A stretch of 64,000 bases of DNA from Candidatus Portnoybacteria bacterium RBG_13_40_8 (GCA_001819435.1 MHMT01000003.1:5797-69796), one strand, 5' to 3'. Positions 37,292 through 56,388 are shown, counted from the stretch's first letter. The notes: generated by a model not told the origin, from the sequence alone. A program made the numbers and translations.

Positions 37292-38257
37292 TTAATTTGA
37301 TTTATTTATTTCAACTTGATCCTTAATCCAAGAATATGTTTTAGTCAGGCCGTCACGCAGAGAAAACTGAGAAATCCAGCCCAGGGAAGAAATGCGGTCA
37401 ATGCGGAAATTTCTGGCTTTTACTCCTACGGGTCCTTCTATGTGCTTAAGGTTTATTTTCTTGCCGGAAATTTCGGCAATTGTTTTTGCTAATTCATCTA
37501 CGCTCACGTATTCCTGGCGACCGATGTTGACACCGTTTTCTATATCTGAATCCATAAGCATTCGGATTCCCTCGATCATGTCGTCGATATAAGTGTAGGC
37601 GCGCATGGCCGTGCCGTCGCCCCAAATTTCAATGGTATCATTATCCTTGGCTTCAGCAATCTTGCGGCAGAGCGCTGCAGGGGCCTTTTCCCGTCCGCCT
37701 TTCCACGTGCCCTCCGGCCCATAGCAATTCTGGAATCGAGCCAATCGGATAGTCAGACCAAAACGACGGCCATAAGCCATAGCCATACGTTCAGCATAAA
37801 GTTTTTCCCAGCCGTATTCATTATCCGGTAAGGCGGGATAGGCATTCTCTTCAGATAATTCGAGTTCATTATACTCCATATCCCTATAAACACAGGCAGA
37901 AGAAGAAAAGAAATAGCGCTTAACCCCTGCGTTAGCACTAGAATGAATCATATGGATATTTATCAAGGCGCTGTTGTGCATAATTTCGCATTCAGCCGCA
38001 TGGATGAATCCCATGCCGCCCATGTCAGCTGCTAATTGGTAAACCTCGTCAAAGCTTTCATGATTTGGTCCAAGAATAGCTGTCTGGCAGTTCTTTTCTT
38101 CTCTCAAATCCAGAATTAAGAATTCATCCGCAGCGCTCGGAGAGAATTCTGGTTTTTTTAAATCAACTCCGCGCACCCAATAACCTTCTTTTTTAAGTTG
38201 CCTTACCAGATGGCCGCCAATAAAACCTCCTGCTCCGCAGACTAAGGCTTTTTTCAT
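37292..38257 (-). CDS. NAD-dependent nucleotide-sugar epimerase/dehydratase (SDR family)
   Basis: GAGGFIGGHL Rossmann motif. GC noticeably higher (~44%) than neighbouring genes. Confidence 0.65.
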   Translation of the reverse strand: MKKALVCGAGGFIGGHLVRQLKKEGYWVRGVDLKKPEFSPSAADEFLILDLREEKNCQTAILGPNHESFDEVYQLAADMGGMGFIHAAECEIMHNSALINIHMIHSSANAGVKRYFFSSSACVYRDMEYNELELSEENAYPALPDNEYGWEKLYAERMAMAYGRRFGLTIRLARFQNCYGPEGTWKGGREKAPAALCRKIAEAKDNDTIEIWGDGTAMRAYTYIDDMIEGIRMLMDSDIENGVNIGRQEYVSVDELAKTIAEISGKKINLKHIEGPVGVKARNFRIDRISSLGWISQFSLRDGLTKTYSWIKDQVEINKSN

Positions 38258-44997: not shown

Positions 44998-45777
44998 ATG
45001 TATCTTAAAAACATTGTGGCGATTACACCGGTTTGGAATGAGCCACTGGGATTAATTCAGAAATTTCTTAGTGGTATTAAAAGAGTCCGGAGCATTTTAG
45101 CCGAGAAAGAGATCGGTTTCCGACATTTTTTTCTTGATGATGGGGCGCTTCATTTGCCCGATGAGTGTTCGATTCTGGTTCGTCATAAAGAAAACCTGCG
45201 ACTCGCAAAGACTTTAGTGGATGGTTATGAGGCGGTACTGAATCTTAAATCGGTTCCCGATCTTGTTATTCGGTTGGATTGCCAGGAACATGATCCGGAG
45301 AAAATTCCTTTCGTTATTGATCACTTCTCGCATGCATCTCAGCTTCAAGCTCTTTTTCTTCCTGTATGGTACTGGGTCAAGGGCGAAGATAGGCCGTTGA
45401 TGAAAGATATTACCATGATGATTACAAAATTCATTTCCGGCATATCGCCAGTCAACAGACAGGCTGTGCTTGAAGTGTACAATCAGAAATTTCCCCTCGG
45501 ATACCAGGCGTTCAGGATCGCGGCACTTAGAAAGTTGATGAACCCACTAAAGAAAGGTCTCGTGCTTTTTCAGCAGAAATTTAACACTTCTGCTTCGTGG
45601 GGCTTGGATCTCTTGGTTATTCTTTTGGCGGCAAAAGAATATCCAGAGGGCGTTGATTTTATCTTTGGGGGCTGGTCAGAGCCATGGCAAGAGAATCGGT
45701 CTCCGGAAAAAATCGATGCTCAGCGCGTGAAAGCAGAGGCCATGGTAGAATTAGCAGAAGAATTAGATTATCAGTAA
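44998..45777 (+). CDS. hypothetical protein, GT2-like N-terminus (ITPVWNE..., FFLDDGA)
   Basis: Weak GT-A motifs only. GC (~42%) is clearly above the locus average. Confidence 0.3.
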   Translation: MYLKNIVAITPVWNEPLGLIQKFLSGIKRVRSILAEKEIGFRHFFLDDGALHLPDECSILVRHKENLRLAKTLVDGYEAVLNLKSVPDLVIRLDCQEHDPEKIPFVIDHFSHASQLQALFLPVWYWVKGEDRPLMKDITMMITKFISGISPVNRQAVLEVYNQKFPLGYQAFRIAALRKLMNPLKKGLVLFQQKFNTSASWGLDLLVILLAAKEYPEGVDFIFGGWSEPWQENRSPEKIDAQRVKAEAMVELAEELDYQ

Positions 45778-45784
45778 GAAGAAC

Positions 45785-45823
45785 TTGGGCAAGCTTCGTA
45801 TGGCTTGCCCAATTTTTATTTTT
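45785..45823 (+). terminator. intrinsic terminator
   Basis: TTGGGCAAGC-ttcgtatg-GCTTGCCCAA 10-bp stem followed by TTTTTATTTTT. Confidence 0.75.
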
Positions 45824-45861
45824 AAAATCTTACAAAAGACAAGATAAATAGGAGGCATCTC

Positions 45862-45977
45862 TTGACAACTAATTTTTGATTTGCTAATATAAAAGTACGT
45901 TGAGTGGGGAATGTCGTAAGACAAACCTCTTACTACGGGAAGAGAGACCTCTGGCTATATGTCGAGGCCTCTTTTCT
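45862..45977 (+). ncRNA. candidate small RNA: promoter (TTGACA-N17-TAATAT) followed by an ~80-nt structured transcript ending in an intrinsic terminator
   Basis: -35 at 45862-45867 and -10 at 45885-45890. Internal hairpin GTAAGA/TCTTAC. Terminal hairpin AGAGACCTC...GAGGCCTCT followed by TTTT at 45972. Confidence 0.4.
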
Positions 45978-45979
45978 AT

Positions 45980-46120
45980 TTGACACTTTTATTTTATGAA
46001 TTTATACTAAGAAATGTATCGTGATTACGCTTCGCGATCCGAAAGGGAGTCAGAACAAGTACCCATTCAACACGTAGTATTGGGGTTTAACTTTCTGGCT
46101 CCCTTTCGTATCAATTTTTA
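45980..46120 (+). ncRNA. second promoter-to-terminator structured RNA element (sRNA or leader attenuator) upstream of the metalloprotease gene
   Basis: TTGACA-N17-TATACT at 45980-46008. 15-bp stem GAAAGGGAGTCAGAA/TTCTGGCTCCCTTTC (46041-46107) with a 37-nt loop, then a T-run at 46114. Confidence 0.4.
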
Positions 46121-46146
46121 GATGTCTGTGGTATAATTTATTTAGA

Positions 46147-47955
46147 ATGATTTCTTTATCTAAAAAAGGAAAAATTTTTTTGACCCTGCTGATTTCGGGC
46201 GGGCTTTTTATTTCTTTATGTTCCTTCGCCTCGGCCTTTGAAGCGGGGGATAAAGACACTTTTTATATCGATCCTTTCTATGATACAAGCGGGAGAAATC
46301 AGGTATCGGCTACCCTGAAGAATATTTCCGAAAAAGTATATTTTTACATAGAAGACGAATATTGGAGCGCACTTTCAAGTAATGACCAAAATTCTTATCT
46401 TGTTTTGATCGATAACATTGCCAAAGAATTTGATAACACGATTTATTCTTCGCTTCATTATATTTTTGGTTCCGAGTGGAGTCCGGGCATTGATAATGAT
46501 GAAAGAATAACCATCCTTTTAACCGATATTAAGGCTACGGCCGGAGGATATTTCAATTCAAAAGATGAATTTACAAAAAGCGAAGAATCTACCTCTAACG
46601 AACGAGAAATGCTTTATATAAACGCCACCCAGATTAATAATCCTTTAATGAAAAGTTTCATTGCCCACGAGTTTCAACACCTGATAACCTGGAACGAAAA
46701 AGAAAGAACGCAAGGATTGTTGGACGATGTTTGGTTAAATGAGGTGAGAAGCGAATATGCTCCAACAGCTGCCGGATATGACAGCGTTTTTTCCGGTACA
46801 AACCTGGAAAGAAGGATAGGCGATTTTTTGGCTAATCCCTTCGATTCTTTGACCGAATGGAAGGGGGATAGGTTTGATTATCCTCCGGTTAATATCTTCG
46901 GCCACTATTTAGCCGAACAATTTGGTGAAGATATTTTTTCTTTAATGCTTAAAAATAATAAAGTCGGGATTTATAGCGTAGAACAGGCCATAAAAGACAA
47001 AGGATTCAATTTTAATTTTTCTCAAATTTTCAATAATTGGACGATTGCCAACTATTTGAATAATTCTTCTTTAAGCGATGGCCGTTACGGCTATGAGAAC
47101 CCCTATCTTAAGGGCGCGATAAATGTTTCGCCCATAAATTATAGCATCGTTTCTACCAGCGTTATTAGTATTGCGCAAAACATAAAAGATTGGGCTCCTT
47201 ACTGGTATAGATTTATCAACAAACAAGATGCCGGAACGATTGCCGGAGATTTGGAAATAGAATTTGAAGGAGGCGTTGAAAGGGGAAATTTTAATGTTTT
47301 TTATATTATTGAATATTTTTCAAGGCCAACCCTAATTAACTCTCTTGTCCTATCTAATCAGAAAGGAGTTTTAAAAATTCCGGATTTCAAGAATGATATT
47401 GATTCGGTAACGATTATTGTTTCTAATCAGTTTAAAAAAAGCGGTTTTAACAGCAACGGAGAATCAAATAATTTTGTATTGTCTGTGGCCACCACTATTT
47501 TTGGAGAAGAGGTGCCGGAACCTCAGCCTCAACCAGAACCAAATCCCAATAAATTAGCCCGTCCAGAAGATTATGGTCTTAAAGAAGGAGATCTAATCAG
47601 GGCAGAAGGAGATTTTGACATTTTTATCATTAATCAGTACGGCTACAAGCGATTATTCCTTAATCCGACTATTTTCAATATGTATGGACATCTTACGGGC
47701 GGCTGGAAAGCGGTGAAAACCGTTAGCCCATCAACTCGAGACGCTTTTGTAACTTCCGGTCTTTACCGTTACGTAGATTCGCCCAAAGTCTATTTTCTGG
47801 AAGTCACCGGCGGAGATACGGGAATGCTTCACTGGGTTAATATAACCGCGAATAGCTTTCTGACCCAAGGCGGTAAATCCGAATCGATATTTACTGTCAA
47901 TAAATCCGAATTCAATTGGTATCCCAAGGGAGTAGATAAAAATTCACTGCAATGA
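46147..47955 (+). CDS. secreted zinc metallopeptidase-like protein (gluzincin HExxH...NExxSE)
   Basis: N-terminal signal peptide (LTLLISGGLFISLCSFASA). IAHEFQHL with NEVRSE 24 aa downstream. PEPQPQPEPNP linker precedes a C-terminal domain. Confidence 0.5.
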   Translation: MISLSKKGKIFLTLLISGGLFISLCSFASAFEAGDKDTFYIDPFYDTSGRNQVSATLKNISEKVYFYIEDEYWSALSSNDQNSYLVLIDNIAKEFDNTIYSSLHYIFGSEWSPGIDNDERITILLTDIKATAGGYFNSKDEFTKSEESTSNEREMLYINATQINNPLMKSFIAHEFQHLITWNEKERTQGLLDDVWLNEVRSEYAPTAAGYDSVFSGTNLERRIGDFLANPFDSLTEWKGDRFDYPPVNIFGHYLAEQFGEDIFSLMLKNNKVGIYSVEQAIKDKGFNFNFSQIFNNWTIANYLNNSSLSDGRYGYENPYLKGAINVSPINYSIVSTSVISIAQNIKDWAPYWYRFINKQDAGTIAGDLEIEFEGGVERGNFNVFYIIEYFSRPTLINSLVLSNQKGVLKIPDFKNDIDSVTIIVSNQFKKSGFNSNGESNNFVLSVATTIFGEEVPEPQPQPEPNPNKLARPEDYGLKEGDLIRAEGDFDIFIINQYGYKRLFLNPTIFNMYGHLTGGWKAVKTVSPSTRDAFVTSGLYRYVDSPKVYFLEVTGGDTGMLHWVNITANSFLTQGGKSESIFTVNKSEFNWYPKGVDKNSLQ

Positions 47956-47973: not shown

Positions 47974-50382
47974 ATGCTTTATAAGCTTTTTGGCGATCCG
48001 AATAAGAAATACTTGCAGAAAATCCAGCCGATTGTTGAAGAAATAAACAAGCTCGAATCAAAATTCGAGCGTTTTTCTAATGAGGGGCTAAAAAATTTAA
48101 CCACTGAATTTAAAGCCAGACTAGAAAAAGGAGAATCGCTCGACAATATTTTGCCCGAAGCTTTTGCCGCGGTCCGCGAAGCAGCCAAAAGAACTTTGAA
48201 ACAACGCCATTTTGATGCTCAGTTGATAGGGGGAGTCGTTTTACATCAGGGGAAAATTGCCGAAATGAAAACCGGAGAAGGAAAAACCCTGGCCGCCACC
48301 TTGCCATTATATTTAAATGCTTTAACCAATGCGGGTGCTCATTTGGTAACGGTCAATGATTATTTAGCCAGGCGTGATACGGTTTGGATGGGACAAATTT
48401 ATAATTTACTGGGATTGTCGGTTGCCTGTATTAATCACGAAAATTCATATATTTACGATCCAGAATATAGCAGTCAAGAAAAAGATCAAATCAGAGATGA
48501 CCTGGGGAGCTTTAAGGTAGTTGAAGATTATTTAAGGCCGGTTTCGAGAAAAGAAGCTTATTTGGCCGATATTCTTTATGGCACAAACAATGAGTTTGGC
48601 TTTGATTATCTCCGAGATAATATGGCTTATGGCAAAGACGAATTGTCACAGAGAGGATTCAATTATGCGATTGTTGATGAAGTTGACAGCATTTTAATTG
48701 ATGAGGCGAGAACACCGCTGATTATTTCTGCCCCGGATATTGAATCAGCTGATTTGTATAAAAAATTCGCCAAAATTGCTCCTCAGCTGAAAGGAAATAT
48801 TGATTATACCATTGATGAAAAAATGAGAGCAGTAACCTTGACTAATGAGGGGATGGATAAAATTGAGAAAATTTTGGGCATGGGGAATATTTATCAGGAG
48901 AAAAGTATTCAGGTTATCCATCACCTTGAACAAGCCTTACGAGCCGAAGTTTTATTTAAGAAAGACAAAGATTATGTAGTAAGAAATGGCGAAGTAATCA
49001 TCGTGGATGAATTTACTGGTCGTTTAATGCCTGGCAGACGCTATTCCGGCGGATTACACCAGGCGATTGAAGCCAAAGAAGGAGTTGAGGTTCAGAAAGA
49101 ATCAAAAACCTTAGCCACGATTACATTTCAGAATTTTTTCAGAATGTATAAAAAATTAGCCGGTATGACCGGAACCGCCCTAACCAATGCTGAGGAATTT
49201 GATAAAGTTTATAAATTAGATGTAATTAGCATTCCAACCAATAAACCAATGATTAGAGAAGATTTAGCCGATTTAATCTACAAAAATGAAGCCGGGAAAT
49301 TTAAAGCAGTAGTTGAGAAAATAAGAGAATCTTATCAAAAAGGACAGCCAGTTTTAGTGGGCACGGTTTCCATAGAGAAGAACGAACATCTGGGGAGTTT
49401 GCTTAAAAGAGAAGGCATACCTTGCAATATTTTAAATGCTAAAAATCACGAAAAAGAAGGAGAAATAATTGCGCAGGCAGGCCAATCAAAAGCAGTAACC
49501 GTGGCCACGAATATGGCTGGTCGAGGAGTGGATATAATTTTGGGAGGAAATCCGCCGGATGAAAATAATGCCAAAAAAGTCAAAGAACTTGGCGGTTTAT
49601 TTGTTCTTGGCACCGAAAGACACGAAGCGAGAAGAATAGACAATCAATTGCGCGGTCGTTCCGGTCGTCAGGGCGACTCGGGGATGAGTCAATTTTTTGT
49701 TTCTCTGGAAGACGAATTAATGCAAAGATTTGGTTCAGACCGAATAAAGAACCTAATGGACACTTTCAAGATTCCCGAAGACCAGCCGATTCAGAATAAA
49801 CTGATTTCCAATGCCATTGAAAAGGCCCAGGCCAGAATTGAGGGATATAACCTGGATATCCGACATCATGTTTTGGAATATGATGAAGTGATGAATAAAC
49901 AAAGGCAGGCAATTTATAAAATGAGAAAAGACATCTTGTTTGCCAGCGACGAGGAAATACATAATCAAGTAAATGAGTTGATGAACGATGGGGAAATGAA
50001 AAATTATCAGGAAAAGCATAAACAAATTTCTGATAATGACAAAGCAAATTTAGAAAGATTTATAATGCTGAGAACTATTGATATGCTTTGGATGGAGCAT
50101 TTGGAGACAATGGAATGTCTGCGTGATAGTGTTAGATTGCGTGCTTATGGCCAGCGCGATCCGTTGGTAGAATATAAAAATGAAAGCCGAAGATTATTCG
50201 GCCAGATGATGGATGAAATTAATAATGCAATTGTAAATATATTAATCGGCGCAGAAATTCAAAAAAATCCAGCATCCCGGCAAAGGATTTCCGAAGTTAA
50301 ACCCACCAAAAACAAGGTTGGCCGCAACGACCCCTGTCCGTGTGGTTCAGGGAAAAAATATAAGAAGTGTCATGGAAAATAA
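47974..50382 (+). CDS. secA: preprotein translocase ATPase SecA
   Basis: GEGKTL Walker A, DEVDSILIDEARTPLIIS, TNMAGRGVDI, and the C-terminal zinc-binding CPCGSGKKYKKCHG. Confidence 0.95.
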   Translation: MLYKLFGDPNKKYLQKIQPIVEEINKLESKFERFSNEGLKNLTTEFKARLEKGESLDNILPEAFAAVREAAKRTLKQRHFDAQLIGGVVLHQGKIAEMKTGEGKTLAATLPLYLNALTNAGAHLVTVNDYLARRDTVWMGQIYNLLGLSVACINHENSYIYDPEYSSQEKDQIRDDLGSFKVVEDYLRPVSRKEAYLADILYGTNNEFGFDYLRDNMAYGKDELSQRGFNYAIVDEVDSILIDEARTPLIISAPDIESADLYKKFAKIAPQLKGNIDYTIDEKMRAVTLTNEGMDKIEKILGMGNIYQEKSIQVIHHLEQALRAEVLFKKDKDYVVRNGEVIIVDEFTGRLMPGRRYSGGLHQAIEAKEGVEVQKESKTLATITFQNFFRMYKKLAGMTGTALTNAEEFDKVYKLDVISIPTNKPMIREDLADLIYKNEAGKFKAVVEKIRESYQKGQPVLVGTVSIEKNEHLGSLLKREGIPCNILNAKNHEKEGEIIAQAGQSKAVTVATNMAGRGVDIILGGNPPDENNAKKVKELGGLFVLGTERHEARRIDNQLRGRSGRQGDSGMSQFFVSLEDELMQRFGSDRIKNLMDTFKIPEDQPIQNKLISNAIEKAQARIEGYNLDIRHHVLEYDEVMNKQRQAIYKMRKDILFASDEEIHNQVNELMNDGEMKNYQEKHKQISDNDKANLERFIMLRTIDMLWMEHLETMECLRDSVRLRAYGQRDPLVEYKNESRRLFGQMMDEINNAIVNILIGAEIQKNPASRQRISEVKPTKNKVGRNDPCPCGSGKKYKKCHGK

Positions 50383-51635: not shown

Positions 51636-53048
51636 ATGGGGATTTTTTTAAAACGACAAAAATCAACTGAACGAGAAGGATTTCATGACCGACAAAAGAG
51701 TAAAATCCGGCTGATTATGCTGGGGATTTTTATTTTAACCATTGTCGCCGGCAGCTTAAATTATCCGAATTTATGGGATAAAGGAGTTGATTGGATAAAT
51801 TCCAATATTGGTATCAAAATTCCTCATTTTTATAAATTGCCATTTAAACTCGGCTTGGATTTACAAGGCGGTACGCATTTAATTTATGAGGCCAATCTTT
51901 CAACCATAGAAGCGGGCGAAAGAGATGCGTCTCTTGACGGGATTAGAGACGTGATTGAAAGAAGGGTTAATATTTTTGGAGTAGCCGAACCAACCATTCA
52001 AATAAATAAATCCGGTGATTCCTATCGTTTGATAGTCGATTTGCCGGGAGTAACCGATATTCATCAAGCAATTGAAATGATTGGAGCCACGCCTTATCTT
52101 GAATTCAAAGAACAAAGAGAACAAGCAGAGACCGATGAAATTTTAAAAAGACAACAAGAAGGCGACGAAGAAGCCCAAAAAATTGACCCTTATTTCACAT
52201 CAACTCAATTAACTGGTCGATATCTGAAAAAATCTCAACTGGCCTTTGACCAAACCACCAGCAAGCCTCATGTGGGTTTGGAATTTACCGATGAAGGTGG
52301 AAAAATTTTTGCCGAATTAACCAAGAATAATGTTGGTAAGATATTGGCGATTTATTTGGACGGGTTTCCGATCAGCGCTCCCCGGGTCCAAGAGGAAATT
52401 ACTGGCGGCAATGCCCAAATTACGGGCAGTTTCACAACGGAAGAAGCCAAAGAATTGGCTCAGCGTTTAAATGCCGGAGCTTTGCCCGTGCCGATTAATT
52501 TAATCAGTCAGCAAAATATCGGCGCCTCTCTCGGGCACGATTCATTGATTAAAAGCTTAAAAGCGGGGCTTATCGGCTTTTTGGCCATCCTTCTTTTTAT
52601 GGTTGTGTCTTATAGATTAAGCGGTTTTTTTGCTTCTCTTTCTTTGATTATTTATGTAATAGTTCTTTTGGCTTTATTTAAATTGATACCCGTTACCCTG
52701 ACCTTGGCCGGTATTGCCGGGTTTTTACTTTCTATGGGTATGGCAGTTGATGCCAATATTTTAATATTTTCAAGAACCAAGGAAGAAGTAAGGGAAGGAA
52801 GAGGTTTTTTTGATGCCCTGAATGTCGGAATTAAGAGAGCCTGGCCATCGATTAGAGACGGCAACTTTACTACAATTTTAGTCGGTTTGATTCTGTTTAT
52901 GTTTGGAACGGGTTTCGTCAAGGGTTTCGCCCTCACCTTGATTATTGGTAATTTGATTAATATGTTTTCAGCCATAGTTATAACAAACTATTTAATAAGA
53001 TTCTTTATAAAGGGTGGCGCAGGAGGTCATAAAAAAATTTGGTTATGA
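51636..53048 (+). CDS. secD: protein-export membrane protein SecD
   Basis: LGLDLQGGTHLIYEA SecD periplasmic-domain motif and a C-terminal 6-TM domain. Confidence 0.9.
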   Translation: MGIFLKRQKSTEREGFHDRQKSKIRLIMLGIFILTIVAGSLNYPNLWDKGVDWINSNIGIKIPHFYKLPFKLGLDLQGGTHLIYEANLSTIEAGERDASLDGIRDVIERRVNIFGVAEPTIQINKSGDSYRLIVDLPGVTDIHQAIEMIGATPYLEFKEQREQAETDEILKRQQEGDEEAQKIDPYFTSTQLTGRYLKKSQLAFDQTTSKPHVGLEFTDEGGKIFAELTKNNVGKILAIYLDGFPISAPRVQEEITGGNAQITGSFTTEEAKELAQRLNAGALPVPINLISQQNIGASLGHDSLIKSLKAGLIGFLAILLFMVVSYRLSGFFASLSLIIYVIVLLALFKLIPVTLTLAGIAGFLLSMGMAVDANILIFSRTKEEVREGRGFFDALNVGIKRAWPSIRDGNFTTILVGLILFMFGTGFVKGFALTLIIGNLINMFSAIVITNYLIRFFIKGGAGGHKKIWL

Positions 53049-53938
53049 ATATCTCATTTATAAAATATCATAAGATTCATTATTTTATTGTTGGGGCATT
53101 AATTATCGCCAGCGTAATTTGTTTGGTTGTTTTTGGTTTAAATTTGGGAATTGATTTTCTTGGCGGGAGTATTTCGGAGGTTAATTTCGAAAATAGACCG
53201 GCCAATACCGTAATTCAGGAAAAATTAAATAGTTTAAATTTAGGCGAAATTACCGTTCAGCCAACCGGCGAAAGAGGAGTCATTTTAAGATTAAAAAATA
53301 TCGACGAAAACACTCATCAGGAAATTCTTTTTAAATTAGGCGAAATTTCAAAAATTGAGGAAAAAAGATTTGAAAGTATCGGACCGACGGTGGGTAAAGA
53401 GTTAAGAGAAAAAACCATAATTTTAATAACCGTTTCACTAATTGCCCTGCTTATTTATATTGCCATTGCTTTTAGAAAGTTGAAATGGCCAATTTCAAGT
53501 TGGCAGTATGGCGTTGTATCGGTTATAACTTTATTTATAGATATTCTTATACCGTTTTTGGTTCTGGTAATTTTGGGCAAATTTTACAATGTTCAGTTCA
53601 ATATCCCGATTATCTCTGCCCTATTAACGATTTTGGGTTACACCATTAACGATAAAGTAATTATTTTTGACAGGGTTAGGGAAAATATTCTCAGAACCAG
53701 GTCTGATAATTTTTCTGATACCGTTAATTCCAGTTTAAATCAAATACTCGGCCGTTCCCTCGGTACGGGCCTTTGTACGCTTTTGGTATTATTTTCCATA
53801 TTTTTCCTCGGTGGAGAAACTTTAAAATATTTTTCTCTGACACTGATTATCGGGGTAATTGTCGGCACTTATACTTCTTTATTCATTGCCAGTTCTTTAT
53901 TGGTAACCTGGAATAGATTTAAAACAAAAGGTGCTTGA
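53039..53938 (+). CDS. secF: protein-export membrane protein SecF
   Basis: LGIDFLGGSISEV motif, 6 TM helices, overlaps secD. Confidence 0.9.
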   Translation: MVMNISFIKYHKIHYFIVGALIIASVICLVVFGLNLGIDFLGGSISEVNFENRPANTVIQEKLNSLNLGEITVQPTGERGVILRLKNIDENTHQEILFKLGEISKIEEKRFESIGPTVGKELREKTIILITVSLIALLIYIAIAFRKLKWPISSWQYGVVSVITLFIDILIPFLVLVILGKFYNVQFNIPIISALLTILGYTINDKVIIFDRVRENILRTRSDNFSDTVNSSLNQILGRSLGTGLCTLLVLFSIFFLGGETLKYFSLTLIIGVIVGTYTSLFIASSLLVTWNRFKTKGA

Positions 53939-55101: not shown

Positions 55102-56388
55102 ATGACTGGCGGATTGCCTGACATTTTCAATATTTATAAGGTAATACTCCTGGGCTATTGGTGGATTTGGCTACCGGTGGCTCTTTTTTTTATTTTAAGA
55201 ATGATGTGGCTGGATTATATCCGTTCCGAATATTTGAAAAGCATCGAGTGGACACTTTTGGAGATAAGCTTTCCAAGAGAGGCGATAAAAAGTCCCAAGG
55301 CGATGGAGCAGATTTTTAGCGGATTGCATGTCACAGAGAGAAAACTTAAATTTAAGGACAAATATATAAAAGGTGAACTTCCAACATGGTTTAGCATTGA
55401 AATAGTGGGCGATGGTGGAAGAATCAGAATATTATTAAGAACACCAGAGAAATATAGAAATTTAGTAGAGTCCCAAATCTACGCTCAGTATCCGGATGCC
55501 GAAATTTCGGAAACCCAGGATTATGTTAATGATTTACCATTCGGTATTCCCAATAAAGATTACGATATCTGGGGAACTGAGTTGATTTTAACTCAACCCG
55601 ATGCTTATCCAATCCGAACCTATCCTTTCTTTTTTCAGGAAAAAGAAATTGAAGAAAGAACCGATCCGATGGCTGGTCTTTTTGAGTTTTTAAGCAGTCT
55701 GAACTTCCAAGAACATCTTTGGCTGCAAATTTTGATTAGCCCTGTTGACGATGAATGGAAAAAAGAAGCAGAAAAGGTGGTTGGAAAAATTCTTGGCAAG
55801 GAAGTAAAAAGTTCCAAGAAGAGCGGGTCATTGATTATTAAAGAAGTTAGCGGTTGGCTTGACGCATTTTTAAAAGGAGTTACTGATTTTTTCACCGGAC
55901 CATCGACCAAGGCCGAGACCAAAGAAGAGAAAAAGGTAGAAAATTTAGCTGCTTATTTAAGCCCCGGTCAGAAAGAAGTGGTTTCGGCCATTGAAGCCAA
56001 TATTGCCAAATTAGGATTTAGAACAATGATTAGAGAAATGTATTGGGCCCACAAAGATGTTTTTTCCAAAGACAAGACAGCAGCGGTTGGCGGATTTTTT
56101 AAACAATTTAACACCCAAAACCTTAATGGTTTTAAGCCGAATAAATTGGTCACTCCGGGGCGGAGCAAAATATTCAAAAAACGTCGAGAACCGGGTCAAA
56201 AAAGATATATCTTAAGGTTATATAAAAACAGGCAATTTATTTTCCATAGACCCAGAAGAGGGTTCGTATTCAATACCGAAGAACTGGCTACTGTTTTTCA
56301 TATTCCTCTCAAATACGTTAAAGTGGAAAGAATTCCCAGAATTGAGGCCAAGAAAGGCGGACCACCCACCAGTTTACCCACTATTTAA
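55102..56388 (+). CDS. hypothetical membrane-anchored protein
   Basis: N-terminal TM segment (ILLGYWWIWLPVALFFIL). Immediately upstream of the coupling-ATPase gene. No family assignable. Confidence 0.3.
   Translation: MTGGLPDIFNIYKVILLGYWWIWLPVALFFILRMMWLDYIRSEYLKSIEWTLLEISFPREAIKSPKAMEQIFSGLHVTERKLKFKDKYIKGELPTWFSIEIVGDGGRIRILLRTPEKYRNLVESQIYAQYPDAEISETQDYVNDLPFGIPNKDYDIWGTELILTQPDAYPIRTYPFFFQEKEIEERTDPMAGLFEFLSSLNFQEHLWLQILISPVDDEWKKEAEKVVGKILGKEVKSSKKSGSLIIKEVSGWLDAFLKGVTDFFTGPSTKAETKEEKKVENLAAYLSPGQKEVVSAIEANIAKLGFRTMIREMYWAHKDVFSKDKTAAVGGFFKQFNTQNLNGFKPNKLVTPGRSKIFKKRREPGQKRYILRLYKNRQFIFHRPRRGFVFNTEELATVFHIPLKYVKVERIPRIEAKKGGPPTSLPTI

Follow-up and report, generated by a model that had tools for sequence, protein, structure and literature searches.

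Introduction

Trans-encoded small RNAs (sRNAs) of the enterobacterial RybB/OmrA type carry a 5'-terminal seed and end in a Rho-independent terminator. The CopA/CopT, pT181, and pIP501 regulators are transcribed opposite their target and are fully complementary to it, and in the CopA/CopT type the folded hairpins meet by their loops and swap strands to give a complex resembling a four-way junction, with the target hairpin located in a leader. The ompA and aprE leaders are 5'-terminal stabilizing stem-loops of bacterial mRNAs. The plasmid copy-number antisense system CopA/CopT of R1 and the attenuation countertranscripts of pT181 and pIP501 are treated in two published accounts (PMC10798244; PMC4878617).

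Here we describe a pair of RNA elements, e1 and e2, found in a 64,000-nucleotide stretch of DNA from Candidatus Portnoybacteria bacterium RBG_13_40_8 (hereafter referred to as the window, in which all positions are counted from the first letter). On balance, we consider it probable that e1 and e2 are separately transcribed non-coding RNAs that form a dedicated pair, in which e1 is the sRNA for the e2 leader and alters the fate of the mRNA encoding a putative metalloprotease and SecA.

Like RNAs of the RybB/OmrA type, e1 appears to have its own promoter, a pairing segment at its 5' end, and a terminator hairpin with a U-tail, and it is complementary to an mRNA leader, this complementarity being upheld by compensatory change. 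It is unlike them in that its predicted target is the apex of a long hairpin and not the ribosome-binding region, in that two of its segments, and possibly a third, pair with neighboring parts of the target, and in that its one apparent target is dedicated to it and encoded close by; the host is a Patescibacterium. As in the CopA/CopT and pT181 systems, the target hairpin e2 lies in a leader 5' of a gene, and the e1-e2 pattern would be compatible with loop contact followed by a swap of partners (GGGG:CCUC and ACCC:GGGU). However, e1 and e2 lie on the same strand without overlap, are complementary over only ~20–24 nt, and present the two target segments in the order A'B' (A' and B' being the partners of e1 strands A and B), which is not simple reverse-complement order. 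The pair does not fit the definition of a cis-antisense system because the regulator is not on the strand opposite its target, and, unlike for the pT181/pIP501 attenuators, no alternative terminator/antiterminator pair was identified for e2. T-box leaders offer a further likeness, as there too an mRNA leader recognizes a separate folded RNA by two spatially distinct pairings, but the partner of e2 is not a tRNA, and e2 has no Stem I/specifier, T-box sequence, or Rfam T-box match. Finally, e2 resembles the ompA/aprE leaders in being, in most relatives, a very stable hairpin a few nt from the mRNA 5' end and before a putative secreted-protease gene, whereas the ompA/aprE hairpins have neither a conserved apical domain nor a partner RNA.

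Results

Layout and Sampling of the Locus

The window has a GC content of ~35%, and its proteins have their best relatives in Patescibacteria/Paceibacteria metagenome bins. Both elements are situated in one intergenic gap, which is arranged as follows.

44998-45777: 259-aa open reading frame (ORF) on the upstream side of the 369-nt gap that holds e1 and e2
45785-45812: terminator of the upstream 259-aa ORF
45862-45867 and 45885-45890, + strand: promoter P1 of e1 (TTGACA, 17-nt spacer, TAATAT, with TG at 45882-45883; 10/12 consensus matches)
45897-45979, + strand: e1, predicted RNA of ~80 nt (ends placed by the -10 box on the 5' side and by the U-run on the 3' side)
45980-45985 and 46003-46008, + strand: promoter P2 of e2 (TTGACA, 17-nt spacer, TATACT; 11/12 consensus matches)
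46015-46119, + strand: e2, structured RNA of ~105 nt (from folding and alignment A3)
46129-46137, + strand: TGGTATAAT, extended -10 box (TATAAT at 46132-46137, TGG before it), 9 nt before the protease ATG at 46147
46147-47955, + strand: 602-aa HExxH protein, putative secreted metalloprotease (from translation, with an N-terminal hydrophobic segment)
47974-50382, + strand: secA (Pfam SecA domains), starting 18 nt past the protease stop

Homologs of the 602-aa protein number more than 1,000, and ~77 of them share 60–93% identity with the window copy. An alignment of 33 orthologs (A1) was used to fetch 159 loci; in the locus sampling, 80 were kept out of the 486 candidate loci reported. By BLASTN and iterated nhmmer, e1 and e2 occur as a single copy each 5' of the protease in loci with protein identity of at least 60%, and were not found in loci with a more distant protease. 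Approximately 35 Patescibacteria loci carry elements 5' of an orthologous HExxH protease, with e1 and e2 together in 30 of them, and the printed upstream regions have an identical layout in all loci. Searches with the covariance models built for e2 (R1) and e1 (R2) returned no further copy in the window or in ~650 kb from ~100 more distant Patescibacteria loci.

Promoter-like matches are as common in shuffled sequence as in the window (8 observed vs. 8.7 expected), therefore a single sequence proves little and the evidence lies in conservation. The case made here rests on putative promoters, predicted RNAs, and helices that recur, with compensatory changes, in ~30–35 orthologous loci.

Several features of the surroundings can be recorded separately. 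The window (1-64000) contains zero tRNA genes and zero Rfam families at the gathering threshold. The 259-aa ORF is preceded by a strong Shine-Dalgarno (SD) motif, AAAGGAGGAGAAA, among the few such motifs in the window; it has no Pfam or NCBIfam match, and no homolog was found across the 159 fetched loci, the 94%-identical locus L001 included. This ORF 5' of e1 looks like a lineage-specific insertion.

Element e1

Promoter P1 is kept as TTGACA-N17-TGnTAnnnT in 30/30 orthologous loci. The region 45895-45980 folds with a minimum free energy (MFE) of −33.2 kcal/mol (z = −4.2 vs. shuffles) into a small 5' domain and a hairpin of 13–16 pairs at 45938-45977, followed by UUUUCUAUU. Its parts are given below, all on the + strand.

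45899-45908: helix A strand GUUGAGUGGG at the very start of e1, partner of e2 46062-46071
45912-45923: P3 hairpin UGUC-GUAA-GACA with a GNRA-type loop and CG/GC/UA covariation (columns 22-24/32-34 of alignment A2)
45925-45929: ACCUC, 3' strand of the e1 P2 helix and possible helix C strand to e2 GGGGU at 46082-46086
45931-45937: helix B strand UACUACG, between the e1 P2 helix and the terminator, partner of e2 46073-46079
45938-45977: intrinsic terminator hairpin and U-run, with conserved loop CUGGCUAUAUGUCGA and covariation

The consensus fold obtained with RNAalifold for 30 loci (A2) consists of a short P2 helix, the GNRA-capped P3 hairpin, and the terminator, and 9/21 pairs show compensatory changes, including GC/AU, AU/GC, and CG/GC replacements in the terminator hairpin. 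The G-U pairs of this hairpin mark the + strand. Model R2 gives 89 bits for the window copy, the only one in the window. Taken together, the putative promoter, the predicted intrinsic terminator, and the non-coding character of the sequence between them indicate that e1 is a transcription unit of its own, and the proposal that it has the anatomy of a stand-alone sRNA is supported.

Two observations concern the 3' part of e1 and what follows it. The terminator loop at 45950-45965 (CUGGCUUUAUGUCGA, A2 columns 65-80) is near-invariant in 29/30 loci without covariation. Such constancy is not usual in a terminator loop and may reflect another binding partner. In 11 loci (L003, L011, L013, L019, L022, L026, L027, L035, L081, L083, and L086), a GC-rich variable hairpin (ACCCCG...CGGGGT) lies between the e1 U-run and the P2 −35 box, directly abutting the latter (GGGGTTTGACA); it is absent from the window. 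This hairpin may be a second terminator or an insulator.

Element e2

Promoter P2 is kept as TTGACA/C-N17-18-TATACT/TATAAT in 32 of the 34 loci with enough upstream sequence. The region 46012-46122 has an MFE of −39.9 kcal/mol (z = −5.9 vs. shuffles), and is composed of the following parts, again on the + strand.

46018-46038: P0 hairpin
46040-46055/46093-46108: long stem
46056-46092: apical domain
46062-46071: A' segment CCCAUUCAAC, partner of e1 helix A
46073-46079: B' segment CGUAGUA, partner of e1 helix B
46115-46119: U-run

The core of the long stem, GAAAGGGAGUCAGAA (46041-46055) with UUCUGGCUCCCUUUC (46093-46107), contains one G-U pair and encloses 37 nt. Alignment of 35 loci (A3, RNAalifold) gives a consensus hairpin of 26 pairs, 16 of which show compensatory changes, capped by an apical domain of ~35 nt that is nearly invariant. 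Model R1 scores 90 bits on the + strand vs. 24.5 on the − strand, and this difference, along with the many G-U pairs, indicates that the elements are read from the + strand. The near-invariance of the apex suggests an additional constraint, e.g., a bound protein or a tertiary fold.

The first-pass annotation, made from the window sequence by itself, had described two separate, non-coding, promoter-delimited structured RNAs. Both promoters, both folds, the T-runs, and the TATAAT before the ATG are present where it placed them, the promoters and folds are kept in ~30–35 loci, and the covariation check that it proposed for related intergenic regions gives the compensated pairs counted above for each element. 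It had assigned an intrinsic terminator to each element; a simple terminator scan of the window flags neither hairpin, and the UUUUU of the window e2 begins 2–6 nt past the stem, depending on stem extension. A T-run of at least 4 T within 14 nt of the e2 stem is found in 13/35 loci.

One locus (L082:2603-2965) carries an interrupted e2, with a 5' half that extends through the apical core as far as GTATTG (2681) and a 3' arm at ~2946-2965. The intervening ~265 nt contain another complete e2 hairpin (2703-2783), along with more hairpins and a terminator. A group I intron was considered for this interruption and set aside, as no Rfam match was obtained; an insertion or a duplication could account for it, as could an assembly artefact.

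Identity and Coding Tests

Neither the 64-kb window nor any of 16 orthologous loci contains a gathering-level match to an Rfam 15 family. When 45700-46250 was scanned by E-value, only sub-threshold noise was returned (13–21 bits vs. thresholds of 39–115). ARAGORN finds no tRNA or tmRNA. These scans, the first of which had been suggested along with the original description, agree with its statement that the elements do not resemble tRNA, tmRNA, 6S, or known riboswitches. No model match was obtained for SRP, 6S, RNase P, or Y-RNA, and we know of no defining motif of these RNAs in e1 or e2. A literature search on sRNAs or RNA motifs of Patescibacteria gave nothing relevant. By these comparisons, e1 and e2 appear to represent two families not in Rfam, both belonging to a known kind of RNA.

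The elements had also been said to lack ORFs. There is no conserved frame, although short open frames do exist; they vary in frame, start, and length among loci, and small peptides were rejected on that ground. An AGGAGG 5' of P1 was considered as an SD motif and would give a 5-codon frame only. Similarly, reading the e2 stem AAGGAG/CUCCUU as an SD/anti-SD pair was discarded in favor of an ordinary stem, as SD motifs are rare in the genome and no start codon follows.

Complementarity and Covariation Between e1 and e2

Elements e1 and e2 do not stand alone but are complementary to one another, with covariation, a relation that had escaped the first-pass annotation. In helix A, GUUGARUGGGN at the 5' end of e1 matches, in reverse complement, ACCCAYUCAAY in the e2 apex. 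This helix is formable in 30/30 loci and comprises 11 pairs, with 97.3% of alignment cells paired, 4 pairs changed on both sides, and zero A-C mismatches. Helix B comprises 8 pairs, of which 5 are changed on both sides. In most loci it consists of AUACUUGG with CCAAGUAU and in the window of UACUACG (45931-45937) with CGUAGUA (46073-46079); the variants elsewhere are ACUAUG/CAUAGU, AUGUAACG/CGUUGCAU, UACGACG/CGUUGUA, AACUACG/CGUAGUU, and ACUAGG/CCUAGU. Since B' lies directly 3' of A', the complements of both e1 segments are side by side in the apex. A third contact, helix C between e1 ACCUC and e2 GGGGU (46082-46086), is compatible in more than 85% of cells and is indistinguishable from pairing within the P2 helix in cis; were it to form, each RNA would lose an internal helix of 4 pairs as the strands change partners.

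In a concatenated alignment of e1 and e2 from 30 loci (A4), the 19 intermolecular pairs of helices A and B are formed in 94.7% of cells, and 9/19 pairs are changed on both sides, with 35 such cells. Shuffles equal the observed values in 0/500 cases on each of five measures, two of which are robust to relatedness, and slid controls have 29–43% of cells paired. The cognate duplexes are also more stable than the non-cognate ones, with −17.2 vs. −15.5 kcal/mol for helix A and −8.7 vs. −6.1 kcal/mol for helix B, and this advantage is equalled in 0/20,000 permutations for both helices. The e1 columns of helix B were aligned by duplex register, which favors pairing in the counts above; the permutation test is independent of that alignment.

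Individual pairs can be followed on a neighbor-joining (NJ) tree of the protease. Pair 50/78 (A4 columns) switches between U-A and A-U at least 5 times, on both sides every time, and pair 51/77 switches between G-C and C-G ~5 times; on this tree the switches are repeated and independent. Pair 8/74 changes at least 7 times without ever producing A-C (GC 16, AU 8, GU 6, AC 0), and pair 13/68 likewise has no A-C mismatch (AU 19, GC 5, GU 5). That G-U is tolerated and A-C never appears places the constraint on the + strand RNA and not on the DNA. A competing cis pairing inside e2 (A3 column 54/62, equivalent to A4 column 74/82) is broken in 16/30 loci. These patterns argue that the complementarity of e1 to its putative target RNA is kept by compensatory substitutions.

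After the costs of opening both folds, the net binding of e1 to e2 is modest, at a rough estimate of −1 to −8 kcal/mol. RNAcofold on e1 and e2 was uninformative because intermolecular pairs inside hairpin loops are not representable. Pattern searches of the window for complements of e1 gave chance-level matches only. A scan of 49 start regions yielded one candidate for a second e1 target, at 53013-53061 (−23.5 kcal/mol), which was rejected because the pairing is discontinuous and 2.4% of random windows equal it.

The locus L011 is a sister of L014 by its protease, yet it has the window-type variants in both e1 and e2. The e1-e2 module may have been exchanged between lineages as a unit.

Downstream Genes and the Position of e2

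The gene downstream of e2 had been annotated as encoding a secreted metalloprotease, and this putative assignment is supported by a predicted signal peptide, by HEFQH at residues 174-178 (HExxH being invariant in 33 orthologs), and by the match of the 33-ortholog profile to the "neutral metalloprotease" of PDB entry 7bb8 (E 7.9e-14, residues 35-330). No Pfam match was obtained for the 602-aa protein; the HExxH motif and the homology are what is expected of a zinc metalloprotease at the sequence level. The C-terminal ~130 aa (residues ~470-601, window 47555-47952), with GYKRLFLNP...MYGHL motifs, recur at 45–73% identity elsewhere (L093-L159), in numerous further proteins from Yanofskybacteria, Paceibacteria, and related bins, and appear to constitute a widespread unannotated Patescibacteria domain.

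The first-pass annotation had named the protease by itself as the gene that might be controlled; the downstream unit comprises the protease and secA. The latter follows the protease in 28/29 loci checked (the L035 contig ends within the protease gene), at a distance of tens of nt from the protease stop in most loci and of ~160 nt to 1.3 kb in L020/L084, L021, L085, L086, and L087, and it is probably in the same operon. While the gene 5' of e1 differs among loci, e2 is always directly 5' of protease-secA. The end of the e2 stem lies 6–23 nt before the ATG, without a −10 box, in most of the 35 loci, so e2 would be an mRNA leader there.

The window itself has a different arrangement. Here TGGTATAAT could serve as the promoter of a protease mRNA with little or no leader, and e2 may lie outside the protease mRNA altogether in this lineage. 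A T-run after e2 combined with TGnTAnnnT before the ATG occurs in only 6 loci (window, L001, L005, L006, L017, and L082), and in L016 and L025 the box before the ATG is just a plain TAyAmT. The layout with a putative e2 terminator and a separate protease promoter, which the first-pass annotation had described for the window, is a minority variant, clear in 6–8/35 loci. SD-like motifs occur within 20 nt of the start in 8/49 window ORFs of at least 120 aa, and a TATAAT-like box stands directly 5' of the ATG in several window ORFs, e.g., 37292-38257 and 55102-56388, which suggests frequent leaderless or SD-independent initiation in this genome. With SD motifs this rare, structure beside the start codon likely matters, and leaderless starts are plausible.

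These arrangements bear on a reading in which the e1-e2 complex is a free-standing RNA or RNP unrelated to protease-secA, e2 being released by processing or, in the window lineage, by its terminator, while the operon merely borrows P2. It would explain why e2 and its pairing with e1 are equally kept in the lineage with a T-run after e2 and a separate TGnTAyAAT box for the protease, and why the e2 apex is conserved far beyond the needs of pairing; the near-consensus promoters likewise suggest high constitutive expression. It is a serious rival that we nevertheless regard as unlikely, as e2 always stands directly 5' of one gene pair while the gene 5' of e1 varies, no other copy or context was found in the window or the ~650 kb of distant loci, and no partner protein is evident.

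Pairing in Cis or in Trans

In 26/30 loci, e1 lies less than 150 nt 5' of e2 on the same strand. This proximity, together with the order of the segments (A..B..A'B'), which is that of a pseudoknot, would also suit a single long cis leader, in which the P1 transcript reads through the e1 hairpin and the e1-e2 pairing is a long-range pseudoknot. Such a leader fits poorly with the kept and covarying hairpin and U-run at the end of e1, with the retention of P2, and with the further GC-rich hairpin between e1 and e2 in many loci. Moreover, in L002, L034, and L086, e1 is 0.8–1.1 kb 5' of e2, and a 179-aa membrane-protein gene with its own terminator intervenes, so pairing there must be in trans. We consider the single cis leader improbable; given the e1 terminator and U-run, the kept P2, the extra hairpins, and the separated loci, pairing in trans is the simpler reading, with cis read-through possible where e1 and e2 adjoin.

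The first-pass annotation had left the choice among small RNAs, a leader, and a riboswitch-like device. The first two terms describe e1, with its sRNA anatomy, and e2, a predicted leader in most relatives, and nothing indicates a small-molecule riboswitch. A leader whose apex acts as a sensor, for a small molecule or for a protein, in the way of a riboswitch or operator, with the complementarity to e1 being incidental, would account for the ~35 nearly invariant apical nt and for an expression platform that varies by lineage (T-run vs. stem beside the ATG), as in riboswitch classes. But e1 and e2 covary at positions that are unpaired or mismatched in cis, e2 has one gene context only, no Rfam family matches, and no alternative antiterminator or anti-sequestor pairing was found; we attribute the conserved apex to pairing with e1, and view such a sensing role as very doubtful. 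That the elements are DNA-level repeats, e.g., inverted-repeat operators for a regulator with no functional RNA, is scarcely credible: A/A' and B/B' are indeed inverted repeats in DNA close to two promoters, but the tolerance of G-U and never of A-C at pairs 8/74 and 13/68 fits + strand RNA only, the long stems are rich in G-U pairs, and the covariance model strongly prefers the + strand.

Discussion

Proposed Mechanism

The reading that we prefer, that of a dedicated e1-e2 pair acting in trans, can be laid out as a sequence of steps. Element e1 would be a trans-acting sRNA with a strong promoter, a 5'-terminal pairing segment, a GNRA hairpin, a second pairing segment, and an intrinsic terminator. 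Element e2 would be a long hairpin starting near its own transcription start, whose near-invariant apex complements both e1 segments. Pairing would open a short internal helix in each RNA (GGGG:CCUC in e1 and ACCC:GGGU in e2), and the opened strands could then be swapped between the two, giving up to ~24 intermolecular pairs in a junction-like complex.

We infer from the position of e2 as the 5' leader in most relatives that the binding of e1, should the two RNAs meet in the cell, would change the fate of the protease-secA mRNA and thereby regulate both genes. Binding could act on mRNA processing, stability, translation, or read-through. As possible routes, a double-strand-specific RNase could cleave the e1-e2 duplex or the long stem, or a 5' stabilizing hairpin could be removed. 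In the window lineage, where e2 appears to end at a T-run and an extended −10 box of its own precedes the protease, the pair may act as free RNAs or by attenuation, the latter through altered read-through at the e2 T-run.

Two aspects of the structural model call for some caution. The formation of ~20 pairs within a closed hairpin loop would pose a topological problem, and would need threading of the e1 5' end or a junction geometry. In addition, pairing at the apex does not obviously open the ~22-bp lower stem beside the start codon in this model, which counts against regulation. The most specific form of the proposal, a dedicated two-RNA switch of ultra-small Patescibacteria in which the neighboring e1 invades the e2 leader apex by reciprocal strand exchange and so sets the level of SecA, the motor of the Sec translocase, and of the secreted protease, is offered tentatively, as a possible rather than a probable outcome.

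Significance

The e1-e2 pair may be viewed as a natural case of two RNAs that are encoded on one strand without overlap and that resemble, by analogy of pattern, a plasmid antisense system. Its interest lies in how good the intermolecular covariation is, in the phylum of its host, and in its link to secA. The two RNAs can be synthesized, and tests of the pair, whether in vitro or in a surrogate host, would not need the organism in culture.

Patescibacteria have tiny genomes with few recognizable regulators, and RNA-based regulation among them is almost undescribed. Two strongly promoted non-coding RNAs that are kept beside secA clade-wide, with their pairing documented by recurrent, independent compensatory changes, provide a concrete and testable entry point. 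If the two-RNA switch is real, no earlier sRNA-target pair of this phylum would have had the support of covariation, and e1 and e2 would represent an RNA-based control of secA that is unrelated to secM. If secA and the secreted protease are indeed controlled in this manner, the pair would bear on how secretion is tuned in these episymbiotic cells.
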